Shown: positions 1 through 14,789, counted from the stretch's first letter. The stretch: 14,982 nucleotides of DNA from a virus (IMGVR_UViG_2547132281_000001), one strand, 5' to 3'. Program-made: numbers and translations. Notes: generated by a model from the letters alone, not told the origin.

Positions 1-31
1 AATGAAATCGGATGTTTATTACGGAACTGTT

Positions 32-223
32 TTAAAGACCTGCCGGGATTTCGTTATTATCCTGGTGAATAACTTTATCGACCGGGTAACAGTTACCGGG
101 AATTTTCTGTTCGGTTGCTGCAGTCACACACTCCTGCATTGTCCTGTGAACACTGACTGCAATATCAACTGGCTCTCCGGAAACAAGAAAAACTGTCAGA
201 ACAAGTGCAAATGCTGTATTCAT
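32..223 (-). CDS. ydfD: YdfD-like small lysis protein (63 aa; internal Met of the 81-aa track ORF)
   Basis: Translation MNTAFALVLTVFLVSGEPVDIAVSVHRTMQECVTAATEQKIPGNCYPVDKVIHQDNNEIPAGL matches my recollection of Qin YdfD. Start overlaps dicB stop as ATGA. Synteny dicB-ydfD. Confidence 0.75.
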   Translation of the reverse strand: MNTAFALVLTVFLVSGEPVDIAVSVHRTMQECVTAATEQKIPGNCYPVDKVIHQDNNEIPAGL

Positions 224-408
224 TGCCAGCATCCTTTTTGTATCGGACGTAAACGGGCCAACATTGAAAGAATGCATATTTTATTTAATAGCTCCCGTTC
301 GTGTTTTCTCTTGTTAATGGCATCTTCAGTAAATACAGGGTTACTGATAGTGACACCAATTTCAAAACAACCTTCAGACGTATTAACGTTTGGTAATAAC
401 GTTTCCAT
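220..408 (-). CDS. dicB: DicB cell-division inhibitor (62 aa)
   Basis: Internal Met of track ORF 220..513 gives METLLPNVNTSEGCFEIGVTISNPVFTEDAINKRKHERELLNKICILSMLARLRPIQKGCWQ, near-identical to recalled K-12 DicB. SD GAGGA upstream on minus strand. Lies downstream of DicF. Confidence 0.85.
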   Translation of the reverse strand: METLLPNVNTSEGCFEIGVTISNPVFTEDAINKRKHERELLNKICILSMLARLRPIQKGCWQ

Positions 409-577
409 TATCGCGTCCTCAACAATGAATTTTGTGATGCGGTGCCTGGTGCCTCCAGGTGACGTTAACCAGTTAACAATTAACGCCGGATACAGAGAAT
501 CCACCCATAACACTGTTTTTGGTTTTAACTGTTCCGCGTGCGCTCAGCCGCATTCACCGCATCACAAAATTCACTTT

Positions 578-635
578 AAAAAGGGCGGCAGAGCAGTCAC
601 GGAGTAAAACTGATACCGCCAAACGTCACCAGAAA
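578..635 (-). ncRNA. dicF: DicF small RNA (ftsZ/manX-targeting sRNA of the dicB operon)
   Basis: Reverse complement of 578..635 reads TTTCTGGTGACGTTTGGCGGTATCAGTTTTACTCCGTGACTGCTCTGCCGCCCTTTTT, which matches the DicF sequence as I remember it, including the 3' GC stem and U-run. Positioned between ydfC and dicB as in Qin. Confidence 0.85.
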
Positions 636-947
636 ATTGATAACAGAGGGCGTTGCAGCGGGGTTGTCACTTAAGCGTATGGTCAACCTGACAACCCGGT
701 GTCCTCAACGGGGGAAGGAATAACCCCGCCATACTTACCGCCGCACCATTTCGCGGATTGCCACAACCGGAAGCGCACGGTCGACGAAAATTTAACGACA
801 GGCTATCTATGAACCAGCTACCTCGCCGTGCGCTTTCGCGTTATGGTCTGACTTTGCAGGGAAATATCCTTTCAGTAAACTGTCTGTGCCGGATGCTCAC
901 CCGTGGAGAACTCCTTACTTACCAACCTTAGCTTCGTTGGTTAGCTA

Positions 948-1166
948 TTAACGCGGGTATGTAATCATTCTGGCAATGCTTAATGCCGCTGCTTTTTCCA
1001 GATTAGTGATATCCTGCTCCAGAGCGGACAGATTTTCAGCCTGCTTAGCTCTGGCTTCATTAGCCCATTTCAGATCCTGCGCTGCATTAATTTTCTGGCG
1101 CATCCACTCATAAAGTTCATCATCGGTATAGTCTGGCGCGATGATGACGGGTTCTCGTTTCTGCAT
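948..1166 (-). CDS. ydfC: YdfC-like protein (72 aa)
   Basis: Track ORF MQKREPVIIAPDYTDDELYEWMRQKINAAQDLKWANEARAKQAENLSALEQDITNLEKAAALSIARMITYPR. Size and position as for ydfC in the dicB operon. Confidence 0.75.
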   Translation of the reverse strand: MQKREPVIIAPDYTDDELYEWMRQKINAAQDLKWANEARAKQAENLSALEQDITNLEKAAALSIARMITYPR

Positions 1167-1195
1167 ACTGATTCCTCGCGGTGCTGTTTCGCTTA

Positions 1196-1324
1196 TCAGC
1201 CGTTAGATTTTGCCGAACTGGAAAGCGCCTGTTTAAATTCGTTGAAGCTGTGAGCTTCTTCGCCTTCGGCAAGGCCTTCGAAGTATTCTTCGTAAGCCTT
1301 TTCCATGATTTTGTCAAAATCCAT
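1196..1324 (-). CDS. ydfB: YdfB-like small protein (42 aa)
   Basis: Hand translation of minus strand gives MDFDKIMEKAYEEYFEGLAEGEEAHSFNEFKQALSSSAKSNG. Start lies 1 nt after ydfA stop (TGATATG). Below the track length cut-off. Confidence 0.7.
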   Translation of the reverse strand: MDFDKIMEKAYEEYFEGLAEGEEAHSFNEFKQALSSSAKSNG

Positions 1325-1325
1325 A

Positions 1326-1481
1326 TCACTCACCTGAGTTTCTTTCCAGCCAGCGACGGGCACCATTTTCGGTTTTAAACGTTTTGCTTTTGGTATACGT
1401 CATCGCGGTGAACGTACCGTCCTGGTTGGGGAACACGCCACATACCAGAGATTCGCTGTTGCCAAGATCGATAGTATCCAT
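1326..1481 (-). CDS. ydfA: YdfA-like protein (51 aa; internal Met of track ORF 1326..1535)
   Basis: MDTIDLGNSESLVCGVFPNQDGTFTAMTYTKSKTFKTENGARRWLERNSGE with SD AAGGGGA upstream on minus strand. First gene of the dicB operon downstream of dicA. Confidence 0.75.
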   Translation of the reverse strand: MDTIDLGNSESLVCGVFPNQDGTFTAMTYTKSKTFKTENGARRWLERNSGE

Positions 1482-1561
1482 GCTGACCTCATTTCCCCTT
1501 AACGCTGGGGTAGCGGAACAGTTTGCTGAGAACACCGTGCGGTGTGTTGATGCAAATAAGA

Positions 1562-1612
1562 TTAGCTATGGCTAACATATAGGTCAAGTGATATTGTATG
1601 TTATAGCTAACA
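1562..1612. promoter_or_regulatory. Putative DicA operator pair and dicB-operon promoter region between dicA stop and ydfA
   Basis: TTAGCTATGGCTAA (1562-1575) and TGTTATAGCTAACA (1599-1612) share TGTTA/TAACA or TTAGC/GCTAA half-sites with the palindromes in the dicA-dicC intergenic region. Confidence 0.45.
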
Positions 1613-1647
1613 TGATTGATGTGGTAAAAGATAACTCATTGATGATG

Positions 1648-2055
1648 TTATCTTTTATTTGTCCGCTGACGGGCTTTTAGTAATTCTTCAAAGAGTTTAT
1701 TGAAGTTTTTTACTCGAGCTCGCATTTCGGCGAGCTGGGTATCCTGTTCTGATTCTGGCAGTGCATTAAACAGCTCAAGGAGCTCTAGTTCTTTGGGGGA
1801 TAAGGCAACTGGCTTCTCAACAGGTGGTGTTGGTTGCTTGTCTTCATCGCCAAATAGAATCCATGTTGGTGAGCATTGCAATACTTTGCTGAGGGCAAAA
1901 AGGTTCTTCCCTGTAGGTTCACTATCATCCCGTTCCCATTGTGATACAGACACATGGGAGATTTTCAGGGCTTTAGCAAGAGACCTTTGGGTGTGTTTGA
2001 GGTTTTTCCGACGATACCTAATGCGTTCGCCGATAGTTAAATTTTTTGTTTCCAT
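1648..2055 (-). CDS. dicA: DicA, XRE-family HTH repressor (CI-like immunity repressor)
   Basis: 135-aa track ORF METKNLTIGERIRYRRKNLKHTQRSLAKALKISHVSVSQWERDDSEPTGKNLF... matches recalled K-12 DicA essentially throughout. Divergent from dicC. Confidence 0.9.
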   Translation of the reverse strand: METKNLTIGERIRYRRKNLKHTQRSLAKALKISHVSVSQWERDDSEPTGKNLFALSKVLQCSPTWILFGDEDKQPTPPVEKPVALSPKELELLELFNALPESEQDTQLAEMRARVKNFNKLFEELLKARQRTNKR

Positions 2056-2057
2056 AG

Positions 2058-2123
2058 TTAGCTAATGCTAAATCGTATTGACTATGTTTTTGTTAACATC
2101 TATTTTGTTAGTCATGACTAACA
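2058..2123. promoter_or_regulatory. dicA/dicC divergent promoter-operator region
   Basis: Perfect 18-bp palindrome TGTTAGTCATGACTAACA (2106-2123) 16 nt before the dicC ATG. TGTTAACA (2091-2098). TTAGCTAATGCTAA (2058-2071) abutting the dicA start. Confidence 0.55.
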
Positions 2124-2138
2124 ATAAAGGTGTTTTAA

Positions 2139-2369
2139 ATGCTTAAAACTGACGCTCTTTTGTATTTCGGTTCAAAAACAAAACTTGCACAAGCAGCAGG
2201 TATTCGTTTGGCTTCGCTTTATAGCTGGAAAGGGGATTTAGTTCCCGAAGGTCGCGCGATGCGTCTACAGGAGGCATCTGGCGGGGAGCTTCAGTATGAT
2301 CCCAAAGTTTATGATGAATATCGTAAGACGAAGCGGGCGGGGCGGTTGAACAATGAAAATCACTCCTGA
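2139..2369 (+). CDS. dicC: DicC, Cro-like regulator (76 aa)
   Basis: Track ORF MLKTDALLYFGSKTKLAQAAGIRLASLYSWKGDLVPEGRAMRLQEASGGELQYDPKVYDEYRKTKRAGRLNNENHS matches recalled DicC. SD AAAGGTG upstream. Confidence 0.85.
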   Translation: MLKTDALLYFGSKTKLAQAAGIRLASLYSWKGDLVPEGRAMRLQEASGGELQYDPKVYDEYRKTKRAGRLNNENHS

Positions 2370-4943: not shown

Positions 4944-5447
4944 TTATTGATAGTGTTTTATGTTCAGATAATGCCCGATGACTTTGTCATGCAGCTCCAC
5001 CGATTTTGAGAACGACAGCGACTTCCGTCCCAGCCGTGCCAGGTGCTGCCTCAGATTCAGGTTATGCCGCTCAATTCGCTGCGTATATCGCTTGCTGATT
5101 ACGTGCAGCTTTCCCTTCAGGCGGGATTCATACAGCGGCCAGCCATCCGTCATCCATATCACCACGTCAAAGGGTGACAGCAGGCTCATAAGACGCCCCA
5201 GCGTCGCCATCGTGCGTTCACCGAATACGTGCGCAACAACCGTCTTCCGGAGCCTGTCATACGAGTAAAACAGCCAGCGCTGGCGCGATTTAGCCCCGAC
5301 ATAGCCCCACTGTTCGTCCATTTCCGCGCAGACGATGACGTCACTGCCCGGCTGTATGCGCGAGGTTACCGACTGCGGCCTGAGTTTTTTAAGTGACGTA
5401 AAATCGTGTTGAGGCCAACGCCCATAATGCGGGCAGTTGTCCGGCAT
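4944..5447 (-). CDS. insB: IS1 InsB reading frame (transposase C-terminal part, expressed as InsAB' by frameshift)
   Basis: 167-aa track [61 protein letters not shown]... is canonical IS1 InsB. Confidence 0.95.
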
Positions 5448-5641
5448 CCAACGCCATTCATGGCCATATCAATGATTTTCTGGTGCGTACCGGGTTGAGA
5501 AGCGGTGTAAGTGAACTGCAGTTGCCATGTTTTACGGCAGTGAGAGCAGAGATAGCGCTGATGTCCGGCGGTGCTTTTGCCGTTACGCACCCCCCCGTCA
5601 GTAGCTGAACAGGAGGGACAGCTGATAGAAACAGAAGCCAC
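5366..5641 (-). CDS. insA: IS1 InsA (91 aa)
   Basis: Track [94 protein letters not shown] is canonical InsA. Confidence 0.95.
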
Positions 5642-5998: not shown

Positions 5999-6256
5999 AT
6001 ACAGCGAACGCCATTGGTTTAGTTGGATATTTACTGTGCCGGACAAAAACGGTTTGCGGGGAAATCTTAGTTAAATAGAATGACTGCGGGTGCTTGAGGC
6101 TATCTGTCTCAGGCATGAACACCAAAAGGCAGATAGAGAAAAGCCCCAGTTAACATTACGCGTCCTGCAAGACGCTTAACATTAATCTGAGGCCATATCT
6201 ATGCGACACATAGAGATTAGCCTCTTACGGACCGAAAGGTCAAGGAGAAGCAGGCT

Positions 6257-6391
6257 ATGAAGCAGCAAAAGGCGATGTTAATCGCCCTGATCGTCATCTG
6301 TTTAACCGTCATAGTGACGGCACTGGTAACGAGGAAAGACCTCTGCGAGGTGGAGGTCGCTGTCTTCACAGCTTACGAACCTGAGGAGTAA
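6257..6391 (+). CDS. hokD: Hok-family membrane toxin, HokD/RelF-like but 44 aa
   Basis: MKQQKAMLIALIVICLTVIVTALVTRKDLCEVEVAVFTAYEPEE. N-terminal 31 and C-terminal 13 residues match recalled HokD. SD AAGGAGAAG upstream. A 19-codon upstream ORF ends in ATGA overlap with the start. Confidence 0.8.
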   Translation: MKQQKAMLIALIVICLTVIVTALVTRKDLCEVEVAVFTAYEPEE

Positions 6392-6607: not shown

Positions 6608-6859
6608 ATGATGAACAGCGAAGAACTGAGTAAAATTTTTTGTGAAGATGGCCTCTATGCTGTGTGCGTTGAAAATGGAAATATTGTTAGTCATTACCGC
6701 ATTGTGTGTTTGCAAAAAAATGGGGCTGCGTTAATTAATTTTGTGGATGCCCGAGTGACGGACGGATTTATCTTGCGCGACGGTGAGTTTGTCACTTCAT
6801 TACAGGCATTGAAAGAGATCGGAATAAAAGCTGGCTTTTCTGCTTTTTCAGAAGAATAA
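6608..6859 (+). CDS. Hypothetical 83-aa protein (same length and position as rem in Qin)
   Basis: SD GGAAGGA before ATG. MMNSEELSKIFCEDGLYAVCVENGNIVSHYRIVCLQKNGAALINFVDARVTDGFILRDGEFVTSLQALKEIGIKAGFSAFSEE. Identification rests on synteny and length only. Confidence 0.5.
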   Translation: MMNSEELSKIFCEDGLYAVCVENGNIVSHYRIVCLQKNGAALINFVDARVTDGFILRDGEFVTSLQALKEIGIKAGFSAFSEE

Positions 6860-9603: not shown

Positions 9604-9679
9604 GGCCCTTTAGCTCAGTGGTGAGAGCGAGCGACTCATAATCGCCAGGTCGCTGGTTCAAATCCAGTACAGCGCGCCA
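9604..9679 (+). tRNA. tRNA-like sequence with CAU anticodon (Ile2/Met type) but non-pairing acceptor stem; possibly degenerate
   Basis: D arm (GCTC/GAGC), anticodon loop CTCATAA, T arm GCTGG-TTCAAAT-CCAGT and encoded 3' GCCA are all present. Acceptor 5' strand GGCCCTT pairs with 3' ACAGCGC at only 3 of 7 positions. Confidence 0.45.
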
Positions 9680-10143: not shown

Positions 10144-10617
10144 ATACATATCTGGATTATCACCTGTTACGGTAAAAAGTTATTGCTTACTGTTTTTGTG
10201 AATGGCATTGCAGCAGCCGGATAATGTCAGTGCTGGCTGACGGTGTGCTGGTGGCGGGTGTGGTGGTTATTGCTTTCCCGTTGCTGAAAAAGAAAACGCC
10301 AGACTGTTAGCCGGGTATCAGTTAGCGGGAGAAATTTTTAAATACTTCACAATTCAGGCGGTTGACTGTTGTCTGGTTTGCGGGGAGTTTGTTAAAAGAA
10401 ACTGGCATGGTGAATCCCCCTGTGCGGAGGGGCAATCAGCGAGTAGGTATATGGGATAATCGCGGATTCAGGTGCTGGTACTGAATTCACCGGGAGGCAC
10501 CCGGCACCATGCACTTCAATAGATTCTCTCCACATTATGGATATTCTTTCAGAATATCCCACGCAGACTTTGTGTAAATGTTAACAAATGTGCGTTTTAT
10601 TTGATCTGATTCGCTGT

Positions 10618-13458: not shown

Positions 13459-13818
13459 ATTAATATTAAATCGGATTATTTTTAGCGCTGAATGTGAAAT
13501 TTAAATAAAAAGGACTCTTCCATGAGTCAAAATCCTTGAAATCTTAAGGGTAAGATAAAAGGTCATTAGACAGAATGACACGTTTTATTAATAAATAAAG
13601 CTATTGTTTCATTCGTGTGTTTTTCTTTACAAAAGTAATCCTTGCTATGGTTGGTTAATCATGCGTTAATGGTGTTCTGGTTTGTTACAAAATTATCTGA
13701 AGCAGTCATTGTTATAATTTTATTATTTGTACCTCTTGAGATTTCCTTGTTGGTTTTTCTCTCTGATATTTTTTTTCGGACCATTCTGCCCAAGGGCTAA
13801 CTTCTTCAAAAGGTAATA

Positions 13819-14034
13819 ATGATGTCTAACAAAATGACTGGTTTAGTGAAATGGTTTAACCCTGAAAAAGGTTTTGGTTTCATCACGCCGAAAGATGGTA
13901 GCAAAGATGTGTTTGTGCATTTCTCAGCTATTCAGAGCAACGATTTCAAAACGTTAACTGAGAATCAGGAAGTCGAATTTGGTATTGAGAACGGACCTAA
14001 AGGCCCTGCAGCTGTTCATGTAGTGACACTTTGA
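13819..14034 (+). CDS. cspI: Cold-shock protein CspA family (CspI-like)
   Basis: [71 protein letters not shown]; RNP motifs KGFGFI and VFVHF present. Preceded by about 360 bp of AT-rich leader. Start could be the second ATG at 13822. Confidence 0.85.
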
Positions 14035-14044
14035 GGTAGAAAAT

Positions 14045-14233
14045 ATTACAAACCATATTCACTTTAGATGCCCGTGTTGCCATGGTTCTCAGTATAGAAC
14101 ATCATCTTTTGATGTTTCTGACAGAAATCCTTTCGGGGCAAAATGTATCTTTTGTAAATCAATGATGATTACATTTGATAATATTTCACAATACTTAAAT
14201 GTTAGCCATCTGTCGTTAGATTTAAGAAAGTGA
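14045..14233 (+). pseudogene. Zinc-ribbon-like small ORF lacking a canonical start codon
   Basis: Open frame ...RCPCCHGSQYRTSSFDVSDRNPFGAKCIFCKSMMITFDNISQYLNVSHLSLDLRK* with CxxC..CxxC. Between the upstream in-frame stop and the motif there is no ATG/GTG/TTG, only ATT at 14045 and 14057. Start coordinate is nominal. Confidence 0.35.
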
Positions 14234-14387: not shown

Positions 14388-14789
14388 GTGGGAACCAAAG
14401 TGTCAGATATGCAGAAAAATGTGACTCCCGGCAGGCGAAAAGGCTGCCCTAATTATCCTCCCGAATTTAAACAGCAGCTCGTTGCTGCCTCCTGGGAACC
14501 CGGGATATCCATCTCAAAACTTGCTCTTGAAAATGGCATTAACGCCAATCTGTTGTTCAAATGGCGACAACAATGGCGCGAGGGAAAGCTGCTATTACCT
14601 TCTTCAGAGAGCCCCCAGCTACTTCCTGTGACTCTCGATGCAGCTGCCGAACAGCCAGAATCGCTCGCAGAGGACCCGGAAACCCTCAGTATCAGCTGTG
14701 AGGTAACGTTCCGGCACGGGACGCTCCGCTTCAATGGCAATGTCAGCGAAAAGCTCCTGACTCTGCTGATACAGGAACTGAAGCGATGA
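14388..14789 (+). CDS. tnpA: IS66-family accessory protein TnpA (orf1)
   Basis: 133-aa track ORF; GTG at 14388 or ATG at 14409 (MQKNVTPGRRKGCPNYPPEFKQQLVAASWEPGISISKLALENGINANLLFKWRQQWREGKL...). Stop overlaps the tnpB start. Confidence 0.75.
   Translation: MGTKVSDMQKNVTPGRRKGCPNYPPEFKQQLVAASWEPGISISKLALENGINANLLFKWRQQWREGKLLLPSSESPQLLPVTLDAAAEQPESLAEDPETLSISCEVTFRHGTLRFNGNVSEKLLTLLIQELKR

Follow-up and report, generated by a model that had tools for sequence, protein, structure and literature searches.

The window considered here is the whole stretch of viral DNA that was analysed (IMGVR_UViG_2547132281_000001; 14,982 nucleotides). Its positions 1-2400 are a near-identical, ordinary copy of the control region of a Qin-type E. 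coli prophage, with 96.2% nucleotide identity to E. coli K-12's Qin prophage and an unchanged gene order (ydfD, dicB, DicF, ydfC, ydfB, ydfA, dicA, and dicC). All of the switch-region genes lie on the minus strand, the sole exception being dicC on the plus strand. The operon downstream of dicA, on the same strand, has six of six members in K-12 order (ydfA-ydfB-ydfC-dicF-dicB-ydfD), the full membership that had been claimed in the original prediction; ydfE is left out of this count, as the window ends at the left. The first gene of the dicBF operon is ydfA (1326-1481; 51 aa), which matches Pfam DUF1391 at 96 bits and is identical to its K-12 counterpart at 49 of 51 residues. It is followed by ydfB (1196-1324; 42 aa, 39/42 identical) and ydfC (948-1166; 72 aa), whose product is identical to K-12 YdfC. 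The DicF sRNA (583-635) scores 76.7 bits against Rfam RF00039 (gathering score 48) and is identical to K-12 b1574 at 53 of 53 positions, which bears out the exact match that had been predicted. The cell-division inhibitor encoded by dicB (220-408; 62 aa) matches the Pfam DicB family over its full length (127 bits) and agrees with K-12 DicB at 55 of 62 residues, five of the seven differences falling within the C-terminal 17 residues. The last member, ydfD (32-223; 63 aa), encodes a reported lysis protein (Pfam DUF1482, 88 bits) that is identical to K-12 YdfD at 59 of 63 residues. The contrast with a degraded remnant that was drawn in the original prediction fails, as K-12 Qin has the same full set and, in 762 complete E. 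coli genomes, 80% or more of the stretch is found at a single place.

Of 5426 complete E. coli genomes, 4677 have parts of the stretch, and the Qin prophage of K-12 is cryptic yet has this region intact and regulated (PMC10448788). Such a distribution would be in keeping with a domesticated host module, serving as a conditional division brake and in phage exclusion, rather than with a switch that still governs immunity in an inducible phage. The same may be said of the IS1 at ~4944-5641, the transposase gene fragment at the right end of the window, and a 29-bp deletion relative to K-12 within the operon (ydfC-dicF spacer). On the other hand, the same module is found in the sequenced temperate phages PhiR42_1, mEp460_ev081, and Tritos (PMC10448788), and ydaT-like, replication, RusA, Q-like, and lysis genes are still present in the window on the right-hand side of dicC. 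Domestication is a serious candidate, though somewhat on the improbable side; it and the reading as an immunity switch are not mutually exclusive. As to the latter, positions 1-2400 very probably represent a Qin-type lambdoid immunity and early-left region with a layout like that of P22 immC and with the operator arrangement described below.

The repressor gene dicA (1648-2055, minus strand) encodes a short protein of the CI/C2 type (135 aa; Pfam HTH_3, 58 bits, and Phage_CI_repr), which is identical to K-12 DicA at 134 of 135 residues, the sole difference being G43D. Residues 7-71 match the DNA-binding domain of P22 C2 (PDB 1ADR, E = 8e-20), further PDB matches of the N-terminus (1ADR, 2R1J, and 3JXB) have E-values of ~1e-19, and residues 8-70 are 58.7% identical to the P22 C2 N-terminal domain. 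The Pfam matches of DicA are of the HTH type only: a peptidase domain was not matched, and the C-terminal LexA/S24-type domain for self-cleavage and dimerisation, which is a mark of P22-type immC, is absent. The missing Ala-Gly bond of DicA has been noted in the literature, and RecA is not needed for dicBp switching in K-12 (PMC10448788). Divergent from dicA is dicC (2139-2369, plus strand), which encodes a 76-aa Cro analogue (Pfam P22_Cro, 44 bits) identical to K-12 DicC, and the 83-bp operator region between the two genes (2056-2138) is colinear with K-12. In K-12, deletion of dicA leads to a 22-fold derepression of a dicBp-lacZ fusion, the bistability of the switch depends on DicC, and Rem is an antirepressor of DicA (PMC10448788). 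A rem homologue lies at 6608-6859 (plus strand), outside the region covered by the original prediction, and its product is identical to K-12 Rem at 76 of 83 residues.

Three putative operators, termed Oc, Om, and Oa, fill the 68 bp before the dicA ATG. Oa (AGTTAGCTAATGCTAAAT; 2056-2073) abuts the ATG and has an exact TTAG-N6-CTAA core. Om (2081-2098), the weakest match, occupies the 25-bp register between Oa and Oc and lies in the -35/-10 spacer of dicCp, a PR-like promoter (2078-2106, plus strand; TTGACT, 17 nt, TATTTT) that matched at 9 of 12 positions in a promoter scan and whose position is in accord with the dicC promoter proposed in PMC3441716. Oc (2105-2124; 18-bp site 2106-2123) appears to cover the final bases of the dicCp -10 and to run on into the beginning of the transcribed region; between its 18-bp core and the dicC ATG at 2139 there are 15 nt. 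Oc is a perfect 20-bp palindrome (TTGTTAGTCATGACTAACAA) because of one central base change relative to K-12, the centre being TCATGA here and TCATAA in K-12, while both half-sites are identical. In vivo, DicA binds to the K-12 allele of Oc (TTGTTAGTCATAACTAACAA) and no longer does so once a single change is made in a half-site; from Oc, it represses dicC and activates dicA (PMC3441716). For Om and Oa, the same work reports no DicA binding in an rpsL reporter assay, the only assay reported for Om, the data not being shown there (Yun et al. 2012, PMC3441716).

Beyond the other end of dicA, the PL-like promoter dicBp can be read from the sequence at 1559-1587 (minus strand), with a -35 of TTGACC (1587-1582), a 17-nt spacer, and a -10 of TAATCT (1564-1559). 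Its ACTTGACC and CATCA start region are common to the annotated P22 PL; a simple promoter scan did not list it. Two sites may be assigned as dicBp operators. The proximal site (GATTAGCTATGGCTAACA; 1560-1577) fills the -35/-10 spacer, overlaps the -10, and has an exact TTAG-N6-CTAA core, and the distal site (TGTATGTTATAGCTAACA; 1595-1612) lies immediately upstream of the -35 with two mismatches to TGTTAG-N6-CTAACA. Within the distal site is a 14-bp palindrome (1599-1612), one of the operator-like palindromes of the original prediction; K-12 has TGCTATAGCTAACA at this position, and the palindrome is a by-product of a polymorphic central base in the distal operator. Three operators at dicBp are given in the literature (PMC10448788), and two convincing sites were found near the promoter here. 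Candidates for a third either had at least four mismatches or belonged to a different AT-rich inverted repeat at 1625-1657.

In the original prediction, three palindromes with TGTTA/TAACA arms had been joined into a variable-spacer family, TGTTA-N(4-8)-TAACA, present at both DicA-controlled promoters. Palindromes do occur at both promoters, far beyond chance: a search of the full 15 kb for TGTTA-N(0-12)-TAACA gave two exact matches (1599-1612 and 2106-2123), against 0.20 expected, and two matches were reached in 2 of 200 shuffles. The second of these matches is the predicted 18-bp palindrome upstream of dicC, that is, Oc. The third palindrome, on the other hand, is an 8-bp sequence with overlapping arms (TGTTAACA; 2091-2098) inside Om, and the variable-spacer motif itself was rejected as the unit, being in the wrong register, inconsistent in its spacing, and, in K-12, without one arm of the 14-bp palindrome. 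The operator units are instead most consistent with five 18-bp sites of fixed 6+6+6 geometry around a TTAG-N6-CTAA core, three of them before the dicA ATG at 25-bp intervals and two flanking the dicBp -35, with TGTTAG-N6-CTAACA as the consensus of the strong sites. This core occurs exactly three times in the window (1562, 2058, and 2108) against 0.18 expected (probability of three or more, 6e-4 in 5000 first-order Markov simulations), and all three cores sit in the short intergenic regions on either side of dicA, as does every match to TGTTAG-N6-CTAACA with up to two mismatches. Sites with three mismatches are also found in other parts of the window, about as often as expected by chance, and the intergenic DNA is AT-rich; both would fit with palindromes that arose by chance in AT-rich promoter DNA and bind no protein.

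A contig scan with DicA alone gave only six loci; the diversity of the locus came from a pair of IMG/VR scans, in which the alignments were ordered differently. Among 54 distinct dicA loci, in which DicA protein identity goes down to ~60%, a core site is found at -68 from the dicA ATG (Oc) in 50 and at -18 (Oa) in 49; the proximal dicBp site lies 71-83 nt past the dicA stop in nearly all of them, and a counterpart of the distal site lies ~35 nt upstream of the proximal one in most. Across 46 Qin-type loci, Oa, Om, and the half-sites of Oc are invariant, and the dicBp half-sites differ in two loci only: the left half-site TGTTAG and the right CTAA core of the proximal site are invariant, and the outer two bases of its right half-site differ in 2/46. 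The distal operator has a conserved half-site CTAACA around a polymorphic centre, and the remaining polymorphism at Oc and the dicBp operators is confined to the central 6 bp; the perfect Oc allele occurs in 8 of the 46 sampled loci. Half-sites at the two promoters shift in concert in other immunity types. For instance, the Oc half-site is CCTTAG in the PPompW and Klebsiella types, and their dicBp half-sites shift toward it (GCTTAG, TCTTAG, and CTTAAG). The palindromes thus recur at the same positions in other prophages and phages, and positions fixed to the base in about 50 of the 54 loci, half-sites conserved around varying centres, concerted change across immunity types, and the genetic evidence for Oc (PMC3441716) effectively refute an origin by chance, which is hardly credible. 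These loci show that the operator layout (three plus two, at fixed distances from dicA) is common to a wide family of short C2-type repressors in Enterobacterales phages.

Which protein uses the sites is a separate matter. They could be mainly DicC (Cro) operators, with DicA acting only at Oc and dicBp being repressed indirectly, via other sequence, or with H-NS, Fis, or YjdC. The lack of in vivo DicA binding at Om and Oa (PMC3441716) would fit with this, as would the DicC ChIP-seq peaks, which flank dicA and yield a motif of the TTNG...CNAA form, TT(A/C/T)G...C(G/A/T)AA (PMC11430063). Moreover, the DicA site at dicB is graded as low-evidence, with its location unknown, in the Reg-Seq paper, and other host factors have been reported to affect the operon (PMC10448788, PMC11430063). 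However, the proximal dicBp site has a full Oc half-site (TGTTAG/CTAACA) on one side and the conserved core on the other, and the homologous P22 C2 repressor binds both OR and OL, which makes a predominant role of DicC quite unlikely. The palindromes are supported as DicA/DicC operators at both DicA-controlled promoters.

With DicA as the main repressor, a DicA dimer would bind the 18-bp operators through their TTAG-N6-CTAA core. At Oc it would turn dicC off and activate dicA, as has been shown in K-12; at 1560-1577 and 1595-1612 it would occlude RNA polymerase at dicBp and thereby keep ydfABC-dicF-dicB-ydfD silent, an effect for which repression has been shown in K-12 and the site positions come from the comparative data. 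DicC would bind on both sides of dicA and repress it, creating a bistable switch as in K-12, and the Rem homologue could lift DicA repression, an activity shown for K-12 Rem. Upon derepression, DicF (through ftsZ and other mRNAs) and DicB (with MinC) would block division and also alter ManXYZ-dependent phage entry, and YdfD could lyse the cells, all of which has been published for K-12. A caveat to this model is that Oc of K-12 is the sole site with experimental DicA binding, and one of its central bases differs here.

The leader of the dicBF operon contains a conserved element at 1495-1519 (minus strand; GTTC-CGCT-A-CCCC-AGCG-TTAA-GGGG), roughly +33 to +57 relative to the start inferred for dicBp, at the same promoter distance as the annotated P22 nutL. 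Of 17 distinct variants, 16 can form the same two stems of a candidate H-type pseudoknot, both stems showing compensatory changes, and a pseudoknot is the probable structure of the element. Across the leaders examined, the first early-left gene, whichever it is, lies ~10-25 nt past the element. At 1532-1545 (minus strand) lies a first leader hairpin (ACACCG-CA-CGGTGT), and most related leaders have a hairpin of varying sequence at this position. Rfam gave no match to the element at E <= 5, the single-sequence fold of the leader was unremarkable (z = -0.8), and RNAalifold found no structure in a MAFFT alignment of mixed leader types. A loose scan, which yields ~3 chance matches per 15 kb, found no GC-rich second copy of the pseudoknot in the window, and therefore no nutR-like partner. 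The leader has neither the boxA consensus GCTCTTTA nor P22 boxB; no N-like ORF was found between dicBp and ydfA, and no gene 24 (N) homologue downstream. By eye the element bears no likeness to HK022 putL/putR, and a tentative link of a third leader type (L125 and L137) to HK022 put, for which the only grounds are the motifs CGAAC-GGC and GGATGA, shared by both, and a weak hairpin in common, is not claimed. A literature search for nutL together with ydfA found nothing. As dicB lies beyond the DicF terminator, its expression needs RNA polymerase to read through there, and the element could serve as an antitermination signal, either independent of protein or dependent on a host factor, in a role similar to that of HK022 put. 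Alternatively, it could affect translation or stability of the first early-left gene. That it constitutes an undescribed cis-acting RNA of DicA-type lambdoid phages is a tentative and rather doubtful proposal; the element is a side observation that may be new.

The finding agrees with published work from 1986 to 2024 and is therefore already known. The locus confirms known biology and does not extend it, repressor-binding palindromes having already been described, and, as a textbook E. coli prophage module that has already been dissected genetically, it adds little. A modest gain is that the two putative dicBp operators can be placed to the base (1560-1577 and 1595-1612) in a fixed 18-bp register, which offers a direct design for footprinting and reporter mutations. 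The shared three-plus-two layout, with its several specificity variants, could serve studies of repressor-operator co-evolution, and of all items only the leader RNA element might be worth new experiments.

Among known systems, the closest is the Qin prophage of K-12 (Bejar et al. 1986, 1988; Yun et al. 2012; Ragunathan & Vanderpool 2023), which shares the genes, their order, the Oa/Om/Oc layout, and dicBp, and whose Rem has a homologue here. The two differ in the Oc centre, DicA G43D, DicB (55/62), and the 29-bp ydfC-dicF deletion, and in K-12 the ydfX and ydfW remnants take the place of the ydaT-like and replication genes found rightward of dicC in the window. In comparison with P22 immC (c2, cro, OR1-3, OL1-3, PL, and nutL), the layout of the window is colinear with the annotated OR1-3 and PL: three 18-bp operators occupy ~66 bp before the repressor ATG, with Oa placed as OR3; PL has a -35 of TTGACC, an operator in its spacer, and the CATCA start region; and DicC matches P22_Cro. 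In contrast to P22, DicA has 135 aa and is without a peptidase/RecA-cleavage domain, the half-site core is TTAG-N6-CTAA rather than of the TTAAG type, and the leader carries its other conserved element at the nutL position, with boxA, P22 boxB, and a gene 24 (N) homologue all wanting. Gifsy-type control, in which a short repressor without a self-cleavage site is inactivated by a small antirepressor (Rem) (PMC10448788), is a further likeness, and the window has a homologue of rem. Of the sequenced phages, PhiR42_1 has a DicA of 99.3% identity and shares with K-12 its operator alleles at Oc, Om, Oa, and the proximal site of dicBp, and mEp460_ev081 has a gene for a 135-aa C2-type repressor, a dicC-type gene, ydfA, and dicB. 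Tritos carries ydfABC-dicF-dicB-ydfD paired with an unrelated, HK022-like repressor and operator set; the dicBF operon is therefore a mobile early-left module that is not tied to DicA.

The DicA/DicC immunity switch (repressor and Cro-like protein, respectively) and its palindromes, as described in the original prediction, are confirmed; the interpretation was right in substance, and the system is one already known. Nucleotides 1-2400 of the window align end to end, at 96.2% identity, with the annotated region of the Qin cryptic prophage in E. coli K-12 MG1655. Among 5426 complete E. coli genomes, the top identity to the stretch is 98.8%; parts of it are present in 4677, and at least 80% of it lies at one place in 762. 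The minus strand carries ydfD (32-223; DUF1482; 59/63 identical to K-12), dicB (220-408; Pfam DicB; 55/62), the DicF RNA (583-635; Rfam 76.7 bits vs. a gathering score of 48), ydfC (948-1166; identical to K-12), ydfB (1196-1324; 39/42), ydfA (1326-1481; DUF1391; 49/51), and dicA (1648-2055; HTH_3; 134/135, G43D), while dicC (2139-2369; P22_Cro; identical to K-12) lies on the plus strand. Gene calls, Pfam, Rfam, and the K-12 comparison agree with the gene list first proposed, including an exact DicF (53/53 identical to b1574). However, the proposed contrast with a degraded remnant does not hold, because K-12 Qin carries exactly the same gene set.

Three smaller features of the locus were recorded. 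At about 897, 29 bp that K-12, PhiR42_1 and the closest E. coli genome all have are deleted; the deletion is flanked by the direct repeat CACGGGTG and falls in the untranslated ydfC-dicF spacer, leaving DicF untouched. Codon 43 of DicA (1927-1929), just past the recognition helix, encodes Asp here vs. Gly in K-12; since the Citrobacter and Serratia homologues have Asp too, Gly43 may be the derived allele. Lastly, a perfect AT-rich 11-bp inverted repeat with an 11-nt loop (TAAAAGATAAC ... GTTATCTTTTA; 1625-1657) overlaps the dicA stop codon; it is without a T-run, and may be the dicA terminator, since a typical GC-rich terminator occupies this position in other immunity types.

A search for TGTTA-N(0-12)-TAACA, the motif originally proposed, returned two exact matches in the 15-kb window (1599-1612 and 2106-2123) vs. 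0.20 expected; the third palindrome proposed is the 8-bp TGTTAACA (2091-2098). These palindromes are real at both matches, but their register was wrong. A variable-spacer TGTTA/TAACA unit was ruled out by repeat analysis and comparison with relatives, and the members of the predicted operator family are 18 bp long and share a TTAG-N6-CTAA core. This core occurs exactly three times in the window (1562, 2058, and 2108) vs. 0.18 expected (P(≥3) = 6e-4), each time within the two short intergenic regions either side of dicA, and a window scan placed every site with at most two mismatches to TGTTAG-N6-CTAACA in the same two regions. Ahead of the dicA ATG, three sites stand in a 25-bp register: Oa (2056-2073), Om (2081-2098), and Oc (2106-2123). 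By promoter scan, the dicC promoter consists of TTGACT (2078-2083), 17 nt, and TATTTT (2101-2106); Om lies in its spacer, and Oc spans the end of its -10 and the beginning of the transcribed region.

The perfect 20-bp palindrome TTGTTAGTCATGACTAACAA (2105-2124) is the published operator Oc. It differs from K-12 Oc, cloned as TTGTTAGTCATAACTAACAA (Yun et al., PMC3441716), at a single central base, and this change makes the palindrome perfect. In vivo repression through K-12 Oc requires DicA, and one half-site change abolishes binding; at Oc, DicA represses dicC and activates dicA, while its binding to Om and Oa was absent in the sole reported assay (Yun et al., PMC3441716). DicC ChIP-seq in K-12 gave peaks either side of dicA and the motif TT(A/C/T)G...C(G/A/T)AA (PMC11430063), which agrees with the TTAG-N6-CTAA core. 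The PL-like promoter of the dicB operon, dicBp, was read from the sequence on the minus strand (-35 TTGACC, 1587..1582; 17-nt spacer; -10 TAATCT, 1564..1559). A predicted proximal operator (1560-1577) fills the -35/-10 spacer and overlaps the -10, and the -35 is immediately preceded by a predicted distal operator (1595-1612). Thus two dicBp operators were found here, whereas the literature speaks of three; according to another source, the DicA site at dicB is of low evidence and unknown position.

The original prediction asked whether the sites are missing from other dicA-carrying prophages; the operators are kept in 46 Qin-type IMG/VR loci and in 54 distinct loci. Among the former, Oa, Om, and both Oc half-sites are invariant, and the dicBp half-sites are conserved in all but two loci, in which outer bases of the proximal site differ. 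All other operator polymorphism falls within the central 6 bp, and such a variable centre between conserved half-sites is the pattern expected of dimer-binding operators. The 14-bp palindrome at 1599-1612 hinges on a single polymorphic central base, where the G of K-12 and most loci removes one arm, and the perfect Oc allele is found in 8 of the 46. L003 (JAIIUG010000151.1), a contig of 2.5 kb that bears a Collinsella MAG label, shares this allele and is about 98-99% identical to the present E. coli prophage region; it probably comes from Enterobacteriaceae and was mis-binned.

Identity of the DicA homologues falls to about 60% across the 54 distinct loci, among which are Citrobacter, Serratia, PPompW prophages of EHEC, one phage of Klebsiella, and another deposited as infecting Stenotrophomonas. 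A core site lies exactly at -68 from the dicA ATG in 50 and at -18 in 49, and nearly all of these loci have a proximal/distal pair after the dicA stop. The Oc of the PPompW and Klebsiella type reads CCTTAG-N6-CTAAGG, and the dicBp sites have moved closer to this half-site, with GCTTAG and TCTTAG for PPompW and CTTAAG for the Klebsiella phage. Half-sites changing together at Oc and dicBp across immunity types argue that these sites behave as functional operators.

The dicBF module is common to the sequenced temperate phages PhiR42_1, mEp460_ev081, where it was already noted in the literature, and Tritos. Tritos joins the operon to an HK022-like immunity region, making it a mobile early-left module. 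Right of dicC, the window holds ydaT-like, replication, and DUF977 genes, with an IS1 (InsA/InsB ORFs; 4944-5641) inserted among the early-right genes, and a hok/sok toxin-antitoxin RNA (6088-6259; Rfam 107 bits). It also carries DUF968, RusA, and Q-like genes, a tRNA-Met (CAT; 9605-9679), lysis genes, a csp gene with a cspA-type thermoregulator leader (13664-14080) and, at the right end, a transposase orfA (14388-14789), presumably IS3-like. Within the late region, the tRNA is followed by an STnc100 RNA (10376-10566, plus strand; full match, 114 bits). A second STnc100 match, below threshold (40 bits vs. a gathering score of 47), covers the DicF-dicB spacer (376-585, minus strand), and the two matches suggest that these regions are related.

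The leader of about 70 nt from dicBp to ydfA is conserved even between immunity types. On the minus strand, an element at 1495-1519, accompanied by a hairpin (1532-1545), has an invariant GTTC followed by interlocking stems, CGCT:AGCG (S1) and CCCC:GGGG (S2), and is a candidate H-type pseudoknot. The same two 4-bp stems are possible directly after GTTC in 16 of 17 distinct Qin-like leader variants, with compensatory changes in S1 (CGCT:AGCG, CGCC:GGCG, AGCC:GGCT) and S2 (CCCC:GGGG, ACCC:GGGT, GCCG:CGGC, GCCC:GGGC); the chance rate of the arrangement is about 1% per shuffled sequence. Its distance from the promoter is that of the annotated P22 nutL, and in the leaders examined the first early-left gene, whatever its identity, begins about 10-25 nt further downstream. 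Against a classical N/nut system or a known family, a boxA, an N-like ORF, a second copy in the window, an Rfam match, and a clear likeness to HK022 put were not found; nor was an earlier description in the literature searched. In Tritos the element remains beside ydfA, far from the promoter, and this placement favors antitermination no more than a role tied to the translation or stability of the first gene. In other DicA-family phages, the same leader position is taken by a boxB-like hairpin, GNNNG-GAAAGA-CNNNC, whose stems covary (L012, L101-L124, L127, and L006, all of them leaders that follow the dicA homologue); the ORF after the Serratia leader L006 includes a run rich in arginine, RERPATYRRKKARRSG, that recalls N proteins. 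A third type (L125, L137-L139) carries the CGAAC-GGC and GGATGA motifs common to HK022 putL and putR. Together, these suggest that the leader slot holds interchangeable antitermination-type elements.

Deletion of dicA in K-12 derepresses a dicBp fusion 22-fold, and bistability depends on DicC (PMC10448788). DicA is without a C-terminal cleavage domain (Pfam), which fits its published control in K-12 by the antirepressor Rem, not RecA (PMC10448788). A Rem homologue at 6608-6859 (76/83 identical to K-12) makes the repressor/antirepressor pair complete in the window prophage. DicA residues 7-71 match the DNA-binding domain of P22 C2 (PDB 1ADR; E = 8e-20; 58.7% identity), and the annotated P22 immC layout is colinear with the region described here: OR1-3 occupy 66 bp ahead of the c2 ATG, and PL has a -35 of TTGACC, an operator in its spacer, and a CATCA start.
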